From Clostridia bacterium (GTDB lineage Bacteria > Bacillota > Clostridia > Christensenellales > Borkfalkiaceae), in contig JAFTMQ010000073.1 in the NCBI GenBank assembly GCA_017452305.1, forward strand, positions 1-30,588: a DNA stretch of 30,588 bases. Direction: 5' to 3'. Shown here piece by piece: positions 1-20,436 of the stretch; positions within the stretch are counted from its first letter, which is position 1, and every line of letters begins with the position of its first letter. Made by a program: the position numbers and the translations under genes. Under the pieces are notes generated by a model that was not told the DNA's origin, did not search any database, and worked only from the letters and a program-made list of their open reading frames with translations.

Positions 1-3000
1 CACCGCCACGGGCAAGCCCATTACCGAGCCGCAAACCGTATCCTTTTCTTGCGAGGATGCTCTTTCCCCACCGCCGCTCGGCTTTTCGTTTGCCGTCACC
101 TTAATCTTTACAATCAAGGCTTGTTCGCCGTAGGTATATCGCACGTATTGCGTGTTCGCTTTCAAGGGCTGCGTGTACTTTTCGTCCAACGTCAACTCGC
201 TTGCGTCAAGCTCGATTTGCGAGCCGTCCGTGTAGATAAGCAAGGCAATCAAGCCCGTGCCGTCAAACCTTTCCCCTTCGCTGTATTCCTTTTTATAGCT
301 TGCAAAGGTGGCGATTTTCAATTCCTTAACGCCGACAAACACGCCGAAATGCCCTTTCACCTCACGCAAAAGCGTTTCTGCTTGTTCCAGCTTTTCCAAG
401 CGTTCCGCCGTCGCGTATTGCGCCTGCGTTGCGTTCTCGCGTGCGTTGTTACAATAGAGACGCGCCAAAGCCAACTGCTCGGAATATTTCAAAATTTCTT
501 CCTTCTTCGCCTCGTCGGACGTATCCCACGTAAGCCAAGCTTGTATTTCCGTCAAGTCGATAGCGTCCACAATGCCCACGAACACACTCGTGTTTTCTTC
601 CATCGCAATGCCCGTCGTATGCTTCACGCCAAAGTACGTTCTATATACGTAATTATCATAGCCCAAGCCGTTTTCGGGATAGCGAATAATAAGCTTGCTC
701 TTTTGTCCGCCAAACTGCGTATAATCGAAGAAGTATCCCTCGAAGTTTGCGTAATAGAAGCCCTTATACGTCGATTTCGTCGTGCTGCTGCTCGCTTGGA
801 ATTTAATTTCGTCCGCGATCCAACTGCGGTATTCCGTAGCAAGCCGAGGCGCTTGAATACTCTTAAATTCGTATTCCGTCACGCCGCTTGCAAAGAATGC
901 GGAATCGCCAATCAAGCGCATGCTATACGACAAAATCACCTTGTTGAGCGCCTTGTCGTTCAAGTCGTAGAACGCATAGGCAAGCACGGAAACCGTACCC
1001 TCTTTAATGGTGTAGCTCTTCGCCTTTTCCGCGCCCTCTGCCACACGCGCCGCGGGATAGAGAACAAGCTCGTATTCCCCCTCGCGCACGTTGCGGTAAA
1101 GCACGTTGTTTTCCGCAAAGAACACGGGATTTTCCGCCGCCACCGTCACGGTTGCAAGGCTCGCCGCCGAGCCGAACGCACCCATGCCCACCACGCGTAA
1201 GCTTGCAGGGATTTCCAATGCGGAAATGCTCGTATTCAAGAAGGCAAACGCGCCGATTTCTTCCACGATAGGTATAGTAAGCGAGGTGCAAGCACCCGCT
1301 ACGTCCGCGCCGTTTTGTCCCTCTACGCCGAACGCAAACGCGCCGATTTTCTTCGCCGATTGCAGGTTGAGCGTCTTTAAAGCCGTGTTATAGAAAGCGG
1401 AATCGCCAATCGTTACAACCTTTTCAAGATTGATAGAACGCAGGCTGTACGCATTGTAGAACGCGCCCGCACCGATTTCCGTCACGCTTTCGGGCAGGAC
1501 AAGGGTTTGTAATCTCGTCGCGCCGTAGAACGCGCCGTCGGCAATCGTTTGGATATTCGCGCCGTTAAAGTCCACCGACTTCACGGACGTATTGTAGAAG
1601 GTGTAATCGCCAATCGTCGTTGCATTCGCGCCGAAACTTACGCTTGTAAGTGCTTTCGCACCCGCAAAAGTTTGCGCGCCAAGTCTCGTCACGGACGGTA
1701 AGGCTACGCTTGTAAGCGCGGAGCAATCCTTAAACACGCCGTCGCCCATCGCCCAAATGCCGTCCGCAAGGTCTATCGTTTGCAACGCCTTACAGCCCTC
1801 GAAGACGTAGCTGCCCATTTCCGTCAAGCCGTCCGCCGTAAATGCGGAAAGGTTGCTGTTTGCAAACGCATAATCGCCGAGCGTTTTCACGCTTTGGGGA
1901 AGTACTATACTTTCCAACTTCGAGCCGTAGAACGCGCCCGTCGGGATTTCCGTAATACTCTCGTTGCCCTCTGCAAAAGCCACCGAGGTCAATGCGGAAT
2001 TATAGAAGGCATACGCGCCGATTTTTTGCAGATTTCTGCCAAGGACAACACTTTCCACGCCGCTGTTTGCAAAGGCGTAAGGCGAAATTTCAAGCACCTC
2101 GTCGCCCACCGTAAACGCACCCGTTTTTTGGCTATTCACAAGCAATATCTTACTGCCGTCCGCGGTATAAATAACGCCGTCCCTCTTCACATATTTCTCG
2201 CCCGAAATCTCTACCGTCAAGCCCATAAACGGCGCGCCGTTTAATTGCAGGCTTTCCAAGTCGATTCCGTCGCCGATCGTTACCGTCGAAAGGGTGGTGT
2301 TGGCAAAAATATTGCCGCCCAAAAGCTCTAAACCGTGGAAGTTGAGATAAATATCTTTTAAGCCCGCGCCGGCAAACGCTCGGTTGCCGATTTCGCGCAC
2401 TTTTTCGCCGTTGAAGTCTATTGCAAAGCCGTCCGCCCCGCAGTTTTCAAACGCACGCGCGCCGATGGCAAAGGCAATATTTTCCCCCTTGCTATCCAAC
2501 GTAACCTTGCTAAGGTTGGTGCAATTTGCAAACGCGCCGTCCCCGATCTTCGGGGTGGAAAGGGTAATTTCCGTCAATGCCGTACAGCCCGCAAACATCG
2601 ACTTGCCGATAGCGGTAAATTTGCCCGTCTTTACGCTCGCGATTTGCTTACAGCCCAGGAAGACGTTTTCGCCGCTCATGTGTAAGCCCGTCAAATCCAC
2701 CTCGGTAAGCGCCGTATTCGCAAACGCATAGTGGTGCATCGTACCAATACTCGGCATATCAAACACAGCCTTTAAGGACACGCAATCCATAAACGCCCTA
2801 TGCGCCACGGTGATTGTCTTGACGTTGGAAAGATCTACGTATTGCAGGTTTTTACAGCCGTAGAACGCGTCCTCATAGACCATCGCAAGCGCCGCCCAAT
2901 CGATGTCGGGGTTGACCACCTTTCCGTCCTTCTCACGGTGCTGTACGTCCGAGAAATACACGCCGCGGAGCGCGGTACAGTTCATAAACGCGTATTCGCG

Positions 3001-6000
3001 AATGTCGATAACGCTGTCGGGTATGACGATATATTCGATATTGTCATTGTCCTCAAACGCGCCTGCGCCGATATACCAAATATTCATATCCGTCGGCACG
3101 ACAAGCACCTTTTCGGGTAAGCTGTCGCCGTCGAGGTCGATTTCTTCATTCCAACCTACGCCGTTGTAGTCCGTTAAAACGTAATTGCTTACCGTAAATT
3201 CTTCTTGCACGCGCAAGCTTACGGAAGGGCCGCTCGTTTCAATCCACTTATCCCCGTCTTTACGTTCCATCATCGCGGTGATTGTCGCGCTCCCCTTTTT
3301 CAAAGTCTTGACGTTGCCGCTTTGATCGACGGTTGCCACCTCTTCGTTGGACGAATACCACACAAGCCGCAAATTGGTCAAGGGGTGATACCAAGGGTCT
3401 TTTTCCACCGACAGCGTAAATTCCTCGCCCGCAAATACGCGCACCGTGCCTTGCGCTTTGGTCAAGGACTGCGTGCTCGTTTGCATAGGCCCAAACGAAA
3501 GGGACGGAAGCACCTGCAAAGGCGCTACGTTTTCCGTAACCGTCACGGAAATCACGTGTGTTTCCCCTTTCGGGTTACGCACCAAAATATCCGTAGAGCC
3601 TGCGCGCAAGCCGACGATAACGCCGTTTTTCACGTCCGCAATCGAGGGGAATGCCGACGTCCAACTAAAATTGGACAAATCCGCGTCGCCTTGATAATCA
3701 AGGGCTACCGTATGCGTTTGATAAATATCGAGGGTGATTTTATCTTCCCCTGCCGCCAACTTGAAGCTGTCGGGCAGCATATTGGTGTTTGCACTTTGGA
3801 TATCGATTTTGTACAGACAGCTATTGAGCGCATAGTCGTCAATCTGCACGTAGAAATCCTTGCCGTATTTTTCGTAAATATCGGTGATTTCAATGGAAAG
3901 CTTGCTCGTGCCGTTCCGTACCGCGTTGCGTACGGGCGTGGGGTATTCGGTTGCAAGCTGCAACACCCTCTCGCCCTTGGCGTTGTTGGTAGGATAACAA
4001 AGCATCACCGCTTGCGGATAATGATTATCGTAAACGACAAGGTCTAAGTAAATACGCTCTTTTTCCTTGTTGTTTTCTTTATAATTTTGGAAACGAACGT
4101 TTGCCGATTCCAAAACGGGCGCTTCGTAATCGACGGTAAAGGAAAAGGCAAAGGTATTTTCCTCGGGCACGTGCTCGCCTTCTTTAGGGGGATTTTGGAA
4201 ATATTCAAATTCCATACGGTACGTACCGCCCGCCGTCAAGCCCATCGCCTCGGGGGAAAGACGGAGCTCTACGTTCGCAGGTACGGCACTGCCGCCGCCC
4301 GAATACGCTTTCGCCACGTTGTATAACGTATCCGCATACACCAACTCGCCCGTTACCGCGTCGTACATTCTATAATTCACCACGCGCGCGTTGCGGAGCA
4401 AGCCCGTATATACCGCGCGGATAGAGGTGGACGAAAGATAGTTCTGGTCGCTTCCCTCGCCGTAATATTCGTTATAGCGGGAAACGGCACAATGTTCCTC
4501 GCTTACGTACATGGGTTCGTCATTTTCATCTACGAGATATACGTAGCCACCCATCGGCAACACGTAATCATCGTTATAATACGCCGTATAGGGCAAGGTT
4601 TCCCATACGCTCGCCTTAATTTTGTCCTCGTCCAAAATGGCGGGGTCGGACGCGTTTTGCGCAATTTCAAACGCCGAATAATCGAGCATAGGCGCCGCCG
4701 ACCAATCCCCGTAGAAACCGAGGAAGGGCAAACCCAAATCGCATTGACTTGCATTATCGGATTGCAGCTGCAAGAAGCCTTCCACGTACATACCGTTTTC
4801 AAAAATGCGGTCTATGTACTCTTTTTCGCTCTTATCCAACACTATTTTTACGGAAATCGTCTTTTCCGAATTTGCGCCGACAACAACCTTCCCGTCCGTC
4901 ACGCCTTCCGTCCAAGTTACCTGCGCTTTATCCAAAAGGTGCGCTTGCTCGGACACCGTCAAGCCGTCCACGGACGCGCTTTCCGTCATCAATACGTAGT
5001 TTGCCGTGAAAGAAAGCTCGCTATCGCCAAAGTTCTTTATTTTGAAGCTCATCTCGTACACGCCCGTCTTGTTTGGATCGTCGCCAAGTTCAATCTTGGG
5101 GCGGTAATCGTTTTCCGCTACGTCCGTATAGAGGTAGGCTTGCGTGTTTTCGATGACGTTTTCCAACCGCGCAACGCCCGCGCCTTGCTTACGAGGGGAA
5201 TAGGGCAACCCGTCTTGGTCGTACACTGTGCCCGCCGTGCTCATGGTAAGCTGCATCGCTAAACGGTTAATTTCGCGTGTGTCGGTGATCCCGAGGTCAT
5301 TTTTAATATAACTGCGGACGAGCGCCATAAAGCCCGCCATATTCGGCGACGCCATGGACGTACCGCTCTGTTCGCCGTAGCCGCCGGGGACGGTGGACGT
5401 AATTTCGCCGCCGTGCGCCGTGATTTCGGGCTTTAACTTCAAATCGTGCGTAGGCCCCCACGACGAGAATTCACTCATGAACGGCCCTGCCGCAAACGCT
5501 TCGTCGATTTTCAACGTACCCACGCGGTCGCTGCCCGCCGCCTTGACGAGTTGAATACCTGCATTCATACCGATAGACACTGCGGGGATAAGGTCTTTTT
5601 CCTCAATTTCGCCAAGATTCATACGAATCGTGCCCGAAACGTTGTTGTAAATGACGATAGCCGCCGCGCCCATCTTTTGCGCGACCTCAACCTTTTCCTT
5701 GAAGGTGTTGTCGCCGCGCGCAACCAACGCAATGCGGGGATTTTCGCTGTCGCCAAATTTATTTTGCACGACGCGGTAATCGGAAACGAGCCCCACGCCG
5801 CCCAAGCCGTAGCTATTCACACCGCCGACAACGACGTACTCAAATTCCGTCCTGCCGTAACGGCGGGTAAGTTCCTCAAAGAAATCGTAAGGGTTGCCGT
5901 CGATATCGCGTGATTCTTCATAGAATACGAAGGATTGATTTTCCCCTTCGTTCGCCAAGAAATAGCTTGCCTTTTGCCCGTTGATACTCGCAACGGAAAG

Positions 6001-7356
6001 CGCCGCCGAGAAGGTCGAGGGCGAACCTACCGTACCCGAATCGGGGTTGGAGGTCAAGTTCGTACCATACACGCCGCCGTAGCCCGACGAATAATCGTTG
6101 CTCGCCGCGCACACAAGCGTGATACCCGCGTCTTGTATTCTTTCATATACGTTGGCGAGGGTAATCCCTTCCCAAACCTCGTCGTTGGGGGTAGTAAAGC
6201 CGCAGGACGTACCCAAAGACATATTGATAACGTCCACACCGAGCTTCACGCAATCGTCAAGCGCCGCGATAATATCCTCGGGCACTGCGCCGCCAAGGTC
6301 CTCGTCGTCCAAATCGTCGGTGAATACCTTACAGATAACGAGCTGTGCGTCGGGCACAACCCCTTTAAAGGTTTCGTCAATAGGGTTGCCGTCCTTATCC
6401 GTATAACCCGTCGTATCGTAGCCGCCGATAATACCCGCTACGTGCGTGCCGTGGTTGGAAAAAGAGGGATAAACGTCCGCGTCGTCGTCCGCGTAGTCGT
6501 ACGCAAACGGCACTTTCTCGCTCATATATACGTCGTTGACGTCCAAACCGCCGTTGCGCCTTTCCGCGCTCAACCCACGGTTTGCCACCATATCCTTCAC
6601 GTAGTCCTTACTCCAAGCGACGTCCACGTTTTCGTGCTCGAAGTCTTGAAACGCCTCGTGCGTGTAGTCAAGCCCCGTATCCAAAATCGCAACGACCGTC
6701 CCCTCGCCGTACTTTTCGGCATATGCGGACGAATCGTAAATACCCGTATCATAAACGCTCGTTTGGTTGGTGATTACGCCGTCCTCGTTCGTCGTTTTCG
6801 CATTCTTTACCGTATCGGGAACGGAATACTTGCCCGTCGCAAACGCGCTTTGCACACCTTTCATCTCACGGATGACGTCCAAGTATTGCGTATTGACGCG
6901 GATCGCCAAGCCGTTTAAAACGGTGTTGTAGCTCTGCACCAATTCATACGCAATCCCGCGCTTGGATAAATTGCTTAAAAAGGCGGTTTGCTCCCCGTCG
7001 ATATCGACAAGCGCGCGCTCGCCCGAAAAACTCTCGGCGTAAGCGGAAACCGTTTCCCCCTTCGCGCGCTCTATAAGCGGCTGTTTAGAGAGGGTGACAA
7101 GCACCGTTCTCGTTTCGTACTTGGGCGCGACGTCCTCCGTCTTCATCACTGAGCTGTTGAAGTTTTGCTTCACCATACTCGACGTGTCAAATTGCCCTGT
7201 CACGTTGGTGAAGCTCGTATCCGTCGGCGTTGCCGTGACGGAATTGCTCGGTTGCACGCTGTCCGCGCTAATACGAATAACGCGTTCTAAAACGAGACTT
7301 GACGCCATTGCCAAAGCCAACGCACCGCATACTATCCGTTTTACTGATTTCTTCAT
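1..7356 (-). CDS. Very large secreted S8 (subtilisin/lactocepin/C5a-peptidase-like) serine protease, >=2452 aa, truncated at its 3' end by the window edge. Order: signal peptide, I9-like propeptide, S8 catalytic domain with PA insert, Fn3-like region, two Ig-like (Big_2-type) domains, long BspA-type LRR region, helical segment, Ig-like domain, C-terminal CGS plus hydrophobic tail
   Basis: Translated by hand. ATG at 7356 follows GGGAGG and gives MKKSVKRIVCGALALAM. Catalytic motifs are VVAILDTG (Asp codon 6679-6681, D226), NHGTHVAG (His 6451-6453, H302) and GTSMASP (Ser 5356-5358, S667). Also seen: PA-like IALVARGDNTFKEKV near 5650-5750, SPRKQGAG near 5180-5200, WYSSNEEVATVDQSG (Big_2-like) near 3320-3365, and many IGxxAF repeats at ~865-3090. 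The long plus-strand shadow ORFs starting at 49, 1780, 2800, 3205, 4087, 4492, 5446 and 5935 all lie in the antisense of this one frame. The ORF track lists no ORF from 7356, consistent with no in-frame stop before position 1. Confidence 0.93.
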   Translation of the reverse strand, partial: MKKSVKRIVCGALALAMASSLVLERVIRISADSVQPSNSVTATPTDTSFTNVTGQFDTSSMVKQNFNSSVMKTEDVAPKYETRTVLVTLSKQPLIERAKGETVSAYAESFSGERALVDIDGEQTAFLSNLSKRGIAYELVQSYNTVLNGLAIRVNTQYLDVIREMKGVQSAFATGKYSVPDTVKNAKTTNEDGVITNQTSVYDTGIYDSSAYAEKYGEGTVVAILDTGLDYTHEAFQDFEHENVDVAWSKDYVKDMVANRGLSAERRNGGLDVNDVYMSEKVPFAYDYADDDADVYPSFSNHGTHVAGIIGGYDTTGYTDKDGNPIDETFKGVVPDAQLVICKVFTDDLDDEDLGGAVPEDIIAALDDCVKLGVDVINMSLGTSCGFTTPNDEVWEGITLANVYERIQDAGITLVCAASNDYSSGYGGVYGTNLTSNPDSGTVGSPSTFSAALSVASINGQKASYFLANEGENQSFVFYEESRDIDGNPYDFFEELTRRYGRTEFEYVVVGGVNSYGLGGVGLVSDYRVVQNKFGDSENPRIALVARGDNTFKEKVEVAQKMGAAAIVIYNNVSGTIRMNLGEIEEKDLIPAVSIGMNAGIQLVKAAGSDRVGTLKIDEAFAAGPFMSEFSSWGPTHDLKLKPEITAHGGEITSTVPGGYGEQSGTSMASPNMAGFMALVRSYIKNDLGITDTREINRLAMQLTMSTAGTVYDQDGLPYSPRKQGAGVARLENVIENTQAYLYTDVAENDYRPKIELGDDPNKTGVYEMSFKIKNFGDSELSFTANYVLMTESASVDGLTVSEQAHLLDKAQVTWTEGVTDGKVVVGANSEKTISVKIVLDKSEKEYIDRIFENGMYVEGFLQLQSDNASQCDLGLPFLGFYGDWSAAPMLDYSAFEIAQNASDPAILDEDKIKASVWETLPYTAYYNDDYVLPMGGYVYLVDENDEPMYVSEEHCAVSRYNEYYGEGSDQNYLSSTSIRAVYTGLLRNARVVNYRMYDAVTGELVYADTLYNVAKAYSGGGSAVPANVELRLSPEAMGLTAGGTYRMEFEYFQNPPKEGEHVPEENTFAFSFTVDYEAPVLESANVRFQNYKENNKEKERIYLDLVVYDNHYPQAVMLCYPTNNAKGERVLQLATEYPTPVRNAVRNGTSKLSIEITDIYEKYGKDFYVQIDDYALNSCLYKIDIQSANTNMLPDSFKLAAGEDKITLDIYQTHTVALDYQGDADLSNFSWTSAFPSIADVKNGVIVGLRAGSTDILVRNPKGETHVISVTVTENVAPLQVLPSLSFGPMQTSTQSLTKAQGTVRVFAGEEFTLSVEKDPWYHPLTNLRLVWYSSNEEVATVDQSGNVKTLKKGSATITAMMERKDGDKWIETSGPSVSLRVQEEFTVSNYVLTDYNGVGWNEEIDLDGDSLPEKVLVVPTDMNIWYIGAGAFEDNDNIEYIVIPDSVIDIREYAFMNCTALRGVYFSDVQHREKDGKVVNPDIDWAALAMVYEDAFYGCKNLQYVDLSNVKTITVAHRAFMDCVSLKAVFDMPSIGTMHHYAFANTALTEVDLTGLHMSGENVFLGCKQIASVKTGKFTAIGKSMFAGCTALTEITLSTPKIGDGAFANCTNLSKVTLDSKGENIAFAIGARAFENCGADGFAIDFNGEKVREIGNRAFAGAGLKDIYLNFHGLELLGGNIFANTTLSTVTIGDGIDLESLQLNGAPFMGLTVEISGEKYVKRDGVIYTADGSKILLVNSQKTGAFTVGDEVLEISPYAFANSGVESVVLGRNLQKIGAYAFYNSALTSVAFAEGNESITEIPTGAFYGSKLESIVLPQSVKTLGDYAFANSNLSAFTADGLTEMGSYVFEGCKALQTIDLADGIWAMGDGVFKDCSALTSVALPSVTRLGAQTFAGAKALTSVSFGANATTIGDYTFYNTSVKSVDFNGANIQTIADGAFYGATRLQTLVLPESVTEIGAGAFYNAYSLRSINLEKVVTIGDSAFYNTALKTLNLQSAKKIGAFAFGVEGQNGADVAGACTSLTIPIVEEIGAFAFLNTSISALEIPASLRVVGMGAFGSAASLATVTVAAENPVFFAENNVLYRNVREGEYELVLYPAARVAEGAEKAKSYTIKEGTVSVLAYAFYDLNDKALNKVILSYSMRLIGDSAFFASGVTEYEFKSIQAPRLATEYRSWIADEIKFQASSSTTKSTYKGFYYANFEGYFFDYTQFGGQKSKLIIRYPENGLGYDNYVYRTYFGVKHTTGIAMEENTSVFVGIVDAIDLTEIQAWLTWDTSDEAKKEEILKYSEQLALARLYCNNARENATQAQYATAERLEKLEQAETLLREVKGHFGVFVGVKELKIATFASYKKEYSEGERFDGTGLIALLIYTDGSQIELDASELTLDEKYTQPLKANTQYVRYTYGEQALIVKIKVTANEKPSGGGERASSQEKDTVCGSVMGLPVAV

Positions 7357-17566: not shown

Positions 17567-17714
17567 GTGTCATTTATTTGACTTTAATTTCTCAAAAATC
17601 GATTAGTCTTCCTTTCTCTTTTTGATAATCAAAGCGGACGCTGCAAGCGCGATACCCGTGATAGCCAACGTGCTGCCGATTGCGCTGCCGCAACCACTCT
17701 TCTCGGGCTTCGCT

Positions 17715-17786
17715 TCGCCGCTCGTCGTATCGGAAGAATCGCCGCTCGTCGTGTCGGAAGAATCGCCGCTCGTCGTATCGGAAGAT
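17715..17786 (-). repeat. Three 24-bp tandem repeats encoding (SSDTTSGD)x3 linker
   Basis: tcgccgctcgtcgt(a/g)tcggaaga(a/t) at 17715, 17739 and 17763. Confidence 0.95.
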
Positions 17787-17793
17787 TCAACTT

Positions 17794-18671
17794 CTTTTTC
17801 CGTAGCAACAACCGTGAAGGTGTAATCCTTCAATTCAAACGCTTCGGGAATTTCAACGTCCCAAGCGTAGGTATGCGTTTCGGTTTCTGCGGGAAGTTCG
17901 CTTTCAAGAATCCAAGCAAGTTCCGCTACGGTTGCGTCAAGCTTACCATCGGGTTCAATACCGAACTTGATTTCCGTCGTCGTTTCGCCGTTAACAATTG
18001 TCAAGGTATATACTTCAACCGTCCAAGTCGCATAGATAGCCGTGCTTTCCGTAATCGTGAAGTCTTCGGTGATTGCGTTGCCTTCTACGTCCGTCCAGCC
18101 TGCAAACGTTTTGCCTTCTGCGGTGGGAACGACCAATTCGCTTACCTTGAAGGTGTCGCCGTATTTATGTTCCGTCGTTACTACACAAGTAGGATAAATA
18201 CGAGGGTTACCCGTGATAACGTTTACCGTGTAAACTTTTTCCGTTGCAACTACCGTGAAGGTGTAATCCTTCAATTCAAACGTTTCAGGTACTTCAACGT
18301 CCCAAGCATAGGTGTTGTAGTTGTCTTCAGCGGGAAGTTCGTCTTCGAGAATCCAAGCAAGCTCTGCTACGGTTGCGTCAAGCTTACCATCGTTTTCCAC
18401 ACCGAACTTGATTTCCGTCGTCGTTTCGCCGTTAACAATCGTCAACGTATATACTTCAACCGTCCAAGTCGCATAGATAGCCGTGCTTTCCGTAATCGTG
18501 AAGTCTTCGGTGATTGCGTTGCCTTCTACGTCCTCCCAGCCTGCAAACGTCTTACCAACTGCCGTGGGAGCTACCAATTCGCTTACCTTGAAGGTATCGC
18601 CGTACTTGTGTTCCGTCGTTACTACACAAGTAGGATCAAGACGAGGGTTGCCCGTAATAACGCTTACCGTG
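17794..18671 (-). repeat. 441-bp (147-aa) near-identical tandem intragenic duplication
   Basis: Matching anchors are offset by exactly 441 nt (accgtgaagg at 17811 and 18252; accgtg at 18225 and 18666). The unit contains GKTFAGW...IYATW, a B-repeat-like signature. Confidence 0.95.
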
Positions 18672-20436
18672 CAAGGTTTCTTCCAAACAGTTGCCGTAAT
18701 GTCCCCAACGGTGATATAATCACTTGCTAAATAGTGAACAAAACCGCTCTTAATCGTTAATTCAACCGTATTAACGCCCAAGGATTCGATATAAGCTTTA
18801 TGAATGAAAACGGAAAGAACGCCTTCTTTAACGGTTACAAGCGTAGGATGTTGGAAGATGTCCGCATGTCCGTCTGTCGTCGAGTTCCAAGGATGCGTAC
18901 CGTATTCATACGCGCTGTCGTCCGTGTTCGCATTGATATCAAACAAAGATACGCCGTTGATAAGAATATTTTGTCTAACAGCTTGACGTTCGGGACTGCT
19001 ATAGTTGACGTCATAGATATCCCCGTTTGCAACAGCGGGCCACTTATCGAAAGCGATATTAACTTGATACAATTCGCCTGCGTCACCCGCAACGGTTGCT
19101 TCGGAAATGGTAATGTCGTCACCAGTGAGCGCATATTTTTCAGATACAAAAATACCATTACCCGCAGCAAGCAACACCGTATCTTCCTTTACTTCGTAAA
19201 CGGTGTTACCGAAATCGGTAGCCGAAGGGAATTGACAACCCGCAAGGATTTTAATTTCCGTAATTGCCGCCGCGCCGTCTGCGGTGTTGATCGATCTCGG
19301 CCAACGCATACCGAAGGTATTTTGGTTATTCCATACGTTGAAGAATTGTTCACTGGGGTTTTCGGGCGAACCGATAGGATTTGACGTCGATTGATTTGCG
19401 CGCCAAAGCGAACCAAGCTTCTTACCGTTCAACAAAATATGGTCGTAGAAGTTCAAATACTGCAAGTGCGTCTTATCCGACAAGGCACTCGTATTCAAGC
19501 CTGCATAGTCGTTTTCGCTCAAATGAAAACGAAGGAAGCTATCCCAATTACCGTCTGTTCTAGAATTGCTGCCGTCAATCTTCTTTACTTCCGTTTCGAT
19601 AACGTTGTAGTTCGACGCAGGAATATCGCCAACGTACTTTCTCGGGAACGCAAGCGAGGTGGTTACAAAGTTTACGTCTTCGCTAACGCCATATACTTGA
19701 CCGTCTGCCGAATAGGACAAATCGCTCGAAATGGTAATCGACGTAACGTCACCAACGCCAAGATAGGACAAGGGAATATAAATGTCAATCGTGCTACCAT
19801 AAGACGTGCCATGGTTGGTAAAGTTAACAAAAATAGGCGCGAAGTTCGCCGTCTTGTTGTTTACGTCTTCCACAATATTGGGTTGCATATATCTTGTGCT
19901 GCCCGAAGGTGCGCCTTCATTGTTGGGCATACCCGTCCAAGTGATGGGCGAGGTTTCGCCGCTTGCAAGAAGCGCTTTGTATTCTGCGTTGTGGTCGTAA
20001 ATAGACTTACCGTTTACCAAAACCGCTTTTAATGCAGCTTAGCCAAGCGTGTCATTGCAAACGTTTTTAGGGAACATCGACTCGGTGTAGGAAGGGCTCT
20101 TAATACGATAGAGTGCCGCTTCGGTATAGTCGCCTACGTTGCACCAACTATCAACGATGAAATGGTCCTTCAAATCAACCGTGAGGTTTTCCGCCGCCGA
20201 AGCCGTAATCGGTTCTTGGTTGTATGCAACCACGCCAAGCGCTGCGCCTGCGGATACCGCAAGAGTAGCGGACAAAGCAACGATTGCAAGTTTCTTTGTG
20301 AGTTTCTTCATATTTGCCTCCTTTTTTCTTCGTTTTCCGTCCGAGTGCAATATGACGGAAAGCGTTATTTTTTTAATTCAATACGGTTTCCCGCCCGCCA
20401 AGCAAACGAGGAAAAGCATATATATCTACATCTTGT

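Follow-up and report, generated by a model that had tools for sequence, protein, structure and literature searches.

A probable cysteine-type C-terminal sorting signal of secreted Clostridia proteins that co-occurs with one clade of CPBP proteases

Two unrelated secreted proteins encoded on a single contig of an uncultured Clostridia bacterium from the animal gut end in the same short cysteine-containing motif, which in both is followed by the start of a hydrophobic helix. This locus raises the question of whether the shared ending is a protein-sorting signal and, if so, which enzymes would act upon it. The window, i.e., the whole stretch of 30,588 nucleotides that was analysed, represents the entire contig C53 of a genome assembly of 1.40 Mb (205 contigs, 74% complete, 48% G+C). 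In the initial annotation, the C-terminus of a repeat protein had been read as KSG-CGS followed by a helix and KKRKED. Translation of positions 17606-17701 on the minus strand confirmed this reading and gave KSG-C-GS-AIGSTLAITGIALAASALII-KKRKED, then a stop. The features of this gene are as follows (by translation, unless another basis is given).

17603-20299, minus strand: gene of a secreted repeat protein of about 898 aa, with one in-frame stop
20039-20041, minus strand: the in-frame TAA, which is Glu (GAA) in orthologues (translation and orthologue comparison)
17696-17785, minus strand: Ser/Thr/Asp low-complexity linker, three SSDTTSG units and then EAKPEKS
17684-17695, minus strand: signature motif G-C-G-S, Cys codon at 17690-17692 (alignment of tails)
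17624-17683, minus strand: hydrophobic 20-residue transmembrane segment AIGSTLAITGIALAASALII
17603-17623, minus strand: basic tail KKRKED (cytoplasmic in the topology proposed below) and stop codon

The repeat protein begins with the signal peptide MKKLTKKLAIVALSATLAVSAGAALG (ATG at 20299, by translation) and contains two List_Bact/InlB B-repeat-like units, for which the weak Pfam match is Flg_new. The linker at 17696-17785 probably spans the cell wall; linkers of a similar kind, rich in P/T/E or S/D, were found upstream of the tails in the genomes G229 and G421. An N-terminal signal peptide had been claimed for both proteins of the window. For the subtilase described below the claim held, and for the repeat protein it held in part: the signal peptide is present, but the TAA at 20039-20041 splits it from the body of the gene. 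The orthologues P0003 and P0006 (880 aa each, one of them annotated as 'MAG ... Clostridia bacterium') are uninterrupted and carry the same signal peptide and tail. Moreover, contigs from three other animal-gut metagenomes have C and not A at plus-strand position 20041, so that the codon reads GAA, and the probable source sample retains A (TAA) at a depth of about 7x. The TAA is a strain-specific nonsense change, and the gene is likely a pseudogene in this strain; the change has no bearing on the sorting signal itself. No RNA holder is listed for the stretch.

The second protein is a giant subtilase whose gene runs off the edge of the contig.

1-7356, minus strand: gene of the S8 subtilase, at least 2452 aa, 3' end cut by the contig end (translation and Pfam)
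25-36, minus strand: signature motif V-C-G-S, Cys codon at 31-33 (aligns with the GCGS of the orthologue in G009)
1-24, minus strand: VMGLPVAV, the first eight residues of the tail helix (translation; the remainder lies past the contig end)

Besides a signal peptide, the S8 protein has Peptidase_S8, PA, Fn3-like, Big_2, and BspA-type LRR domains (Pfam). As had been reported, it ends at the cut in CGS-VMG-LPVAV: positions 45-1 of the minus strand encode KDTV-C-GS-VMGLPVAV, and the contig stops eight residues after V-C-GS. Because the ends of the window are the ends of contig C53, this tail cannot be extended within the assembly, and its completion was read from an orthologue in the genus-mate G009 (42% identity over 528 aa). 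The alignment runs through CGSV[MV]G, and the G009 protein terminates in GCGSVVGISGLLAAVALGAAVLLKKKEN, that is, in a helix and then KKKEN. Several further tail matches in the genus lie in frames as long as the S8 protein, at about 2300-2600 aa. The variant V-C-G-S is also present in G229.

A six-frame scan of this genome identified eight complete frames with G-C-[GAS]-S, a helix, and a K/R cluster at the end; the truncated S8 tail is the ninth tail of this genome. When long frames were examined for GC[GAS]S within their last 45 residues, 7 were observed (0.8 expected), far above the chance level. Among 20 aligned tails, Cys was found in 20/20, Gly at -1 in 19/20, and Ser at +2 in 18/20. In a pooled set (n=49, namely 48 tails and one false inclusion), Gly occupied -1 in 44/49 and +1 in 39/49, and Ser occupied +2 in 37/49. 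The pooled tails have 19-27 residues (mean 21) between Cys and the basic cluster, and the set is rich in Lys (K:R = 139:53). The motif, the transmembrane helix, and the basic cluster at the extreme C-terminus are thus all present, the cluster being Lys- and not Arg-rich, and the region ahead of the signature is an acidic or low-complexity linker. A profile built from the 20 tails matched 55/80 species sampled in the genus, single genomes having as many as 18 tails, and Cys was found in all inspected tails of G229, G421, G301, and G089. The motif therefore recurs across the genome and the genus, and its Cys is invariant. A search of a 5.8-billion-protein set with the tail region returned orthologues of the repeat protein only and gives no measure of how far the tail has spread.

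The carriers of the tail are unrelated to one another, several occur per genome, and they include the S8/LRR protease, a GH32 enzyme, B-repeat proteins, F5/8-type-C proteins, and some proteins without any Pfam domain. A signal peptide was present in every tail carrier whose N-terminus is assembled; since five carrier N-termini lie off the contigs, this could be checked for just three carriers in this genome. A 190-aa frame (L006, G000:C189, 585-1157) closes with the double motif SGCSGCGS, a helix, and KKKED; no signal peptide could be recognised upstream of this frame, which is perhaps fragmentary or a pseudogene. The best explanation of these tails is that they are tripartite cysteine-type C-terminal sorting signals, comprising a linker, [KED]-[GS]-G-C-G-S, a helix of about 20 residues, and a Lys-rich end.

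When the eight complete tails were compared with NCBIfam 20.0 and Pfam, all matches fell below the cut-offs. LPXTG_anchor came to 15.6 bits (cut-off 15.9), with only the helix and basic part aligned (profile positions 8-33); the best tail reached 17.7 against Synerg-CTERM (TIGR04564; cut-off 22.5), and one tail reached 13.7 against MYXO-CTERM/GC_trans_RRR (cut-off 15.85), to which the other tails gave no match. The tails of MYXO-CTERM protein families were also among the nearest sub-threshold matches. The JDVT and CGP CTERM models did not reach their cut-offs on the tails either, and Firmicu-CTERM (TIGR04145, a 191-position model) returned nothing in this genome at E <= 10. A Firmicutes version is absent from the paper of Haft on cysteine-type signals (10.1101/2023.06.07.544157), and our literature search found no paper describing this tail. 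Consistent with the initial annotation, which knew of no named Clostridia version, the tail is best read as a version of the known cysteine-type signals that lies outside the current family models.

A resemblance of the Cys context to the lipobox had also been suggested. The Gly residues at -1 and +1 fit this suggestion, whereas Leu at -3 is missing, Cys stands ahead of a C-terminal helix, and Ser at +2 (18/20 aligned tails) occurs in 0/40 lipoproteins of this genome. The likeness is thus partial, and the tail does not have the form of a lipobox, in which an N-terminal signal peptide ends in L-[ASTVI]-[GAS]-C.

Candidate enzymes were then sought in the genome. It had been stated that no processing enzyme is visible in the window, which was right, and no relevant ones were found in the assembled genome either. 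The assembly contains LspA and one CPBP gene (contig C184, adjoining rlmH and a sigma-factor gene); its assembled 74% yielded no sortase, no rhomboid, no Lgt, no tuf, and no match to A4, the profile of one CPBP (Rce1-like) protease clade. Given that this genome encodes about 40 lipoproteins, its own Lgt must sit in the unassembled quarter; and because tuf was not found either, its A4 region is simply unassembled. With A4, Lgt, and tuf unseen in the assembly, we infer the enzymes of this organism from its relatives. The CPBP gene of C184 was considered as the specific sorting enzyme and rejected. This type is a core gene of the genus, found in 77/80 genomes with or without tails (control), so that it cannot account for the patchy distribution of the tails, and it is just 25% identical to the clade that co-varies with them. 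Sortase was found in 1/81 genus genomes and in 0/21 good ones. The sole sortase matches of the genus are two identical copies on two contigs (C55 and C56) of G054, the closest sampled relative; this assembly has 6% contamination, and the copies may be foreign DNA.

The A4 clade followed the tails. All of its members retain the catalytic motifs EExxxR, FxxxH, and HxxxN. Among genus genomes at least 90% complete, A4 was present in 17/17 tail-positive genomes versus 1/6 tail-negative ones; the 14 tail-positive genus genomes without A4 are every one less than 90% complete. The tail-negative exception is G083 (93% complete), which has no tail even at E <= 0.5. In G083, the only good genome with A4 and no tail, the A4 match (C8:18913-19590) lies inside an unusually long frame of 476 aa. 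The protease gene takes two forms in the genus. In G004 it is overlapped by a gene for an Lgt paralogue (ATGA), and the same two genes are neighbours in G024 and G043 (family f1); in most other species of the genus, a collinear CPBP gene (30-40% identical) lies directly downstream of fusA-tuf. The Lgt-adjacent and tuf-adjacent forms never occur together in one genome. On a single-gene tree, the genomes lacking both tail and A4 are scattered. An independent-contrast test within the genus gave 2 pairs changing in the same way, 0 opposite, and 2 unchanged (p = 0.5), and it is powerless because this tree is poorly resolved.

The association was also examined beyond the genus. Among 300 high-quality genomes sampled at the class level, the tail profile matched G229 only (15 true GGCGSS tails), and the protease profile gave 274 bits in G229, 190 bits in G301, and 86 bits in the next best genome. 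By inspection, G301 was found to have four divergent GC tails; its genus-mate G349 is without tails and without the protease. The class sample was then enlarged to 400 genomes of 213 genera, and the protease was searched first. At E <= 1e-25, it was found in G089, G301, G229, and G421 only, and tails with the Cys motif were found in the same four genomes only. G421, which represents a third family, had been flagged by its protease before any tail search, and the tail search then gave 17 tails. At the class level, tails are therefore present in 4/4 genomes with the protease versus 0/~395 others or, counted by family, in 3/3 versus 0/~76. Weak class-level tail matches in G149, G176, G203, G375, and G385 were rejected, as they comprise the helix and basic part only, without the Cys motif. 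Among 1.84 billion representative proteins, the protease profile matched 260 clusters (50% identity) at E <= 1e-30.

These combined data show that the tails strictly co-occur with one CPBP clade, with A4 unseen in the incomplete assembly studied here. It is this tie to a single Rce1-like protease clade that is newly established. Profiling thus picked out a CPBP (type II CAAX-like) clade and not sortase or rhomboid, and the proposal that this lineage has a Cys-CTERM system of its own gained support from the helix and basic end of the S8 orthologue, the recurrence of the tail, the invariant Cys, the absence of a model match, and the co-occurrence with CPBP. None of the named Mrt models matched the A4 proteases at its cut-off. 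MrtJ was among the best NCBIfam matches, yet at 24-32 bits versus a cut-off of 75; Mrt_core gave 18-29 (cut-off 100) and MrtS 16-18 bits (cut-off 130), and the remaining Mrt models (MrtX/C/P/A) scored lower.

The protease is linked to Lgt outside the genus as well. In G421 (family f78), the CPBP gene overlaps that of an Lgt paralogue by 20 nt, and tail-bearing genes lie on the same contig; the order is a tail protein, the Lgt paralogue, CPBP, an anchored protein, and, further on, another tail protein. Relative to the pair of G004, the Lgt of G421 is 40% identical and its CPBP 34% identical. At the same locus (L145, G421:C62, 380-8325), the anchored protein is secreted and has a C-terminal helix without the Cys motif, and a metallophosphoesterase gene and an acyltransferase-like gene precede the gene for the tailed F5/8-type-C protein. 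Moreover, the sixth-best match of the protease profile, P0014, is a natural Lgt-CPBP fusion of 557 aa, represented on three contigs from three samples, with Lgt (PF01790) at residues 5-239 and a CPBP domain of the tail-associated clade (PF02517) at residues 386-489. The gene encoding P0014 (L146, 8001-9674) lies downstream of tsaE, tsaB-like, and rimI-like genes.

A dedicated Lgt paralogue is not obligatory, since G301 has tails and a single Lgt. Lgt copy number was tried as a predictor of tails and proved weaker than the protease (13/17 versus 2/6 good genomes). The coupled Lgt class, which bears the signature GRxGCxxAGCC, also provides the one Lgt of G349, a genome without tails, and the Cys-rich signature was therefore rejected as a marker of the system. 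Frames of about 655-660 aa in G079 and G074 were considered as additional Lgt-CPBP fusions and set aside; judged from their sequences, the Lgt frame appears to run into a galactokinase-like gene. These frames (L028, 4416-6395, G079:C5; L029, 4074-6038, G074:C25) comprise a second Lgt paralogue and a galactokinase-like frame and stand beside uppP. A single frame of this Lgt/galactokinase-like kind occurs in several genus genomes and could be a true fusion or the result of a missed stop codon.

Our preferred reading, to which we assign a probability of roughly 0.6, is that the tail is a C-terminal signal that is lipidated at its Cys by an Lgt-family enzyme and then loses its helix to a CPBP protease. 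By analogy with MYXO-CTERM and its myxosortase, we propose the topology, the occurrence and order of lipidation and cleavage, and the location at the surface. After Sec export, the helix would keep the protein in the cytoplasmic membrane with its N-terminus outside and its C-terminus inside, and in this topology the invariant Cys would lie at the membrane's outer face. There, lipid would be attached to the Cys by an Lgt-family transferase (the dedicated paralogue if present, otherwise the housekeeping Lgt). The CPBP/Rce1-like glutamic intramembrane protease would then cut just behind the Cys and thereby remove the helix, and the large enzyme or adhesin would stay attached by its lipidated C-terminus to the surface of a Gram-positive cell without sortase. 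The host lineage is assumed to be monoderm. With respect to precedent, MrtX cleaves MYXO-CTERM in a Cys-dependent manner, and Rce1 and MmRce1, as reviewed, cut only once the Cys is lipidated (PMC11980579). The lipidating enzyme for MYXO-CTERM is still listed as open in the same paper, with Lgt named as the leading candidate (PMC11980579).

It could be argued instead that the tail is a plain, uncleaved anchor, so that its carriers would be type I membrane proteins, with G-C-G-S serving some other end, for instance helix capping, a disulfide, or reversible S-acylation, and the CPBP protease acting elsewhere. A helix with a Lys cluster does suffice to anchor a protein; moreover, this assembly has tails without A4, and G083 has A4 without tails. 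The missing A4 is attributable to assembly gaps, because tuf and all Lgt are absent as well. A plain anchor has no need of an invariant Cys, fixed flanks, and a fixed distance to the helix, kept in three families, and it would turn the 4/4 versus 0/~395 distribution, the intact protease clade, and the gene neighbourhood of G421 into coincidences. We regard this explanation as unlikely.

Another possibility is that the CPBP protease cleaves the tail without prior lipidation, which would make the tail a signal for retention and release, with shedding of the protein into the cell wall or the medium. This reading draws on the same co-occurrence data; G301 has a single Lgt, and in many genus genomes the protease gene stands beside tuf, apart from any Lgt gene. 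The overlapping Lgt-CPBP pairs in two families and the fusion, however, tie the protease to Lgt, and the lipidated Cys that Rce1 and MmRce1 require (PMC11980579) also points the other way. On balance, cleavage of an unlipidated tail appears improbable.

A further alternative would have the Lgt-CPBP pair serve the ordinary maturation of N-terminal lipoproteins, for example as an LnsB-like helper of acylation, with only an indirect link to the tails. It draws on the finding that LnsB of Staphylococcus aureus, which is CPBP-like, is needed for lipoprotein N-acylation (PMC7387801), and on the lipoproteins (about 40) of this genome. LnsB lacks the CPBP catalytic motifs (PMC7387801), all of which the A4 proteins keep; and lipoproteins, Lgt, and LspA occur throughout the genus, whereas A4 tracks the tails. 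For these two reasons, a role of this kind is very improbable. Finally, that the tail is a variant sortase-type signal by which the proteins are joined to peptidoglycan through transpeptidation is hardly credible, despite the helix and basic end that bring it close to the LPXTG_anchor cut-off, since the tails contain no LPXTG-like motif (as had been noted initially), the LPXTG model aligns to the helix and basic part alone, and sortase is missing from this assembly and from 80/81 genus genomes, which effectively closes the sortase route.

The proposed lipidated and cleaved signal can be set beside the systems already described. It resembles MYXO-CTERM and its proteases MrtX/MrtC/MrtP in Myxococcota (TIGR03901, older TIGR03382): in both, the layout is tripartite, the Cys is invariant and lies in a Gly-rich signature, numerous unrelated secreted proteins of one genome bear the signal, and a dedicated protease of the CPBP/Rce1-like type co-occurs with it; for MYXO-CTERM, too, the proposed order is lipidation and then cleavage. 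Unlike the Myxococcota, the host here belongs to the Clostridia and, if monoderm as assumed, would need no type II secretion step; the basic end is Lys- and not Arg-rich; and the protease of some lineages has its gene coupled, or is itself fused, to an Lgt paralogue. We know of no report of Lgt coupling or fusion for myxosortases. With Synerg-CTERM and MrtS of Synergistales (TIGR04564, NF040589), the tail has in common a Ser/Gly-rich signature, an invariant Cys set against the helix, and a CPBP enzyme, but Synerg-CTERM belongs to another phylum and is linked to type II secretion. As with JDVT-CTERM and MrtJ (NF033191, NF033192), the enzyme gene can adjoin a target gene, as it does in G421; in JDVT systems each protease has a single target, whereas genomes with the present tail have up to 18. 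LPXTG proteins and sortase A (TIGR01167, PF00746, PF04203) fill the same role in Gram-positive bacteria and offer the same succession of linker, motif, helix, and basic end on large surface enzymes and adhesins, but the present tail has Cys as its key residue and a glutamic intramembrane protease as its candidate enzyme. With the lipoprotein pathway (lipobox, Lgt, LspA), finally, the tail shares a Cys flanked by small residues, at the outer face and beside a helix, as well as the link to the Lgt family; in contrast, the helix here lies on the other, C-terminal side of the Cys, and the tail has no Leu at -3 but typically a Ser at +2.

More broadly, and at somewhat less than even odds, gut Clostridia without sortase may make 'C-terminal lipoproteins', and the Lgt-CPBP genes may mark the class of enzyme that lipidates cysteine-type signals generally. 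The overlapping and fused Lgt-CPBP genes provide a testable candidate for this lipidating enzyme, a question left open in previous work (PMC11980579). If the reading of a lipidated and cleaved C-terminal signal is true, annotators could separate surface-anchored from released proteins in these genomes. It would also constitute a third route to the Gram-positive surface, beside sortase/LPXTG and N-terminal lipoproteins, and one that abundant gut Clostridia, as yet uncultured, would employ for the largest of their glycan-degrading enzymes, proteases, and adhesins.
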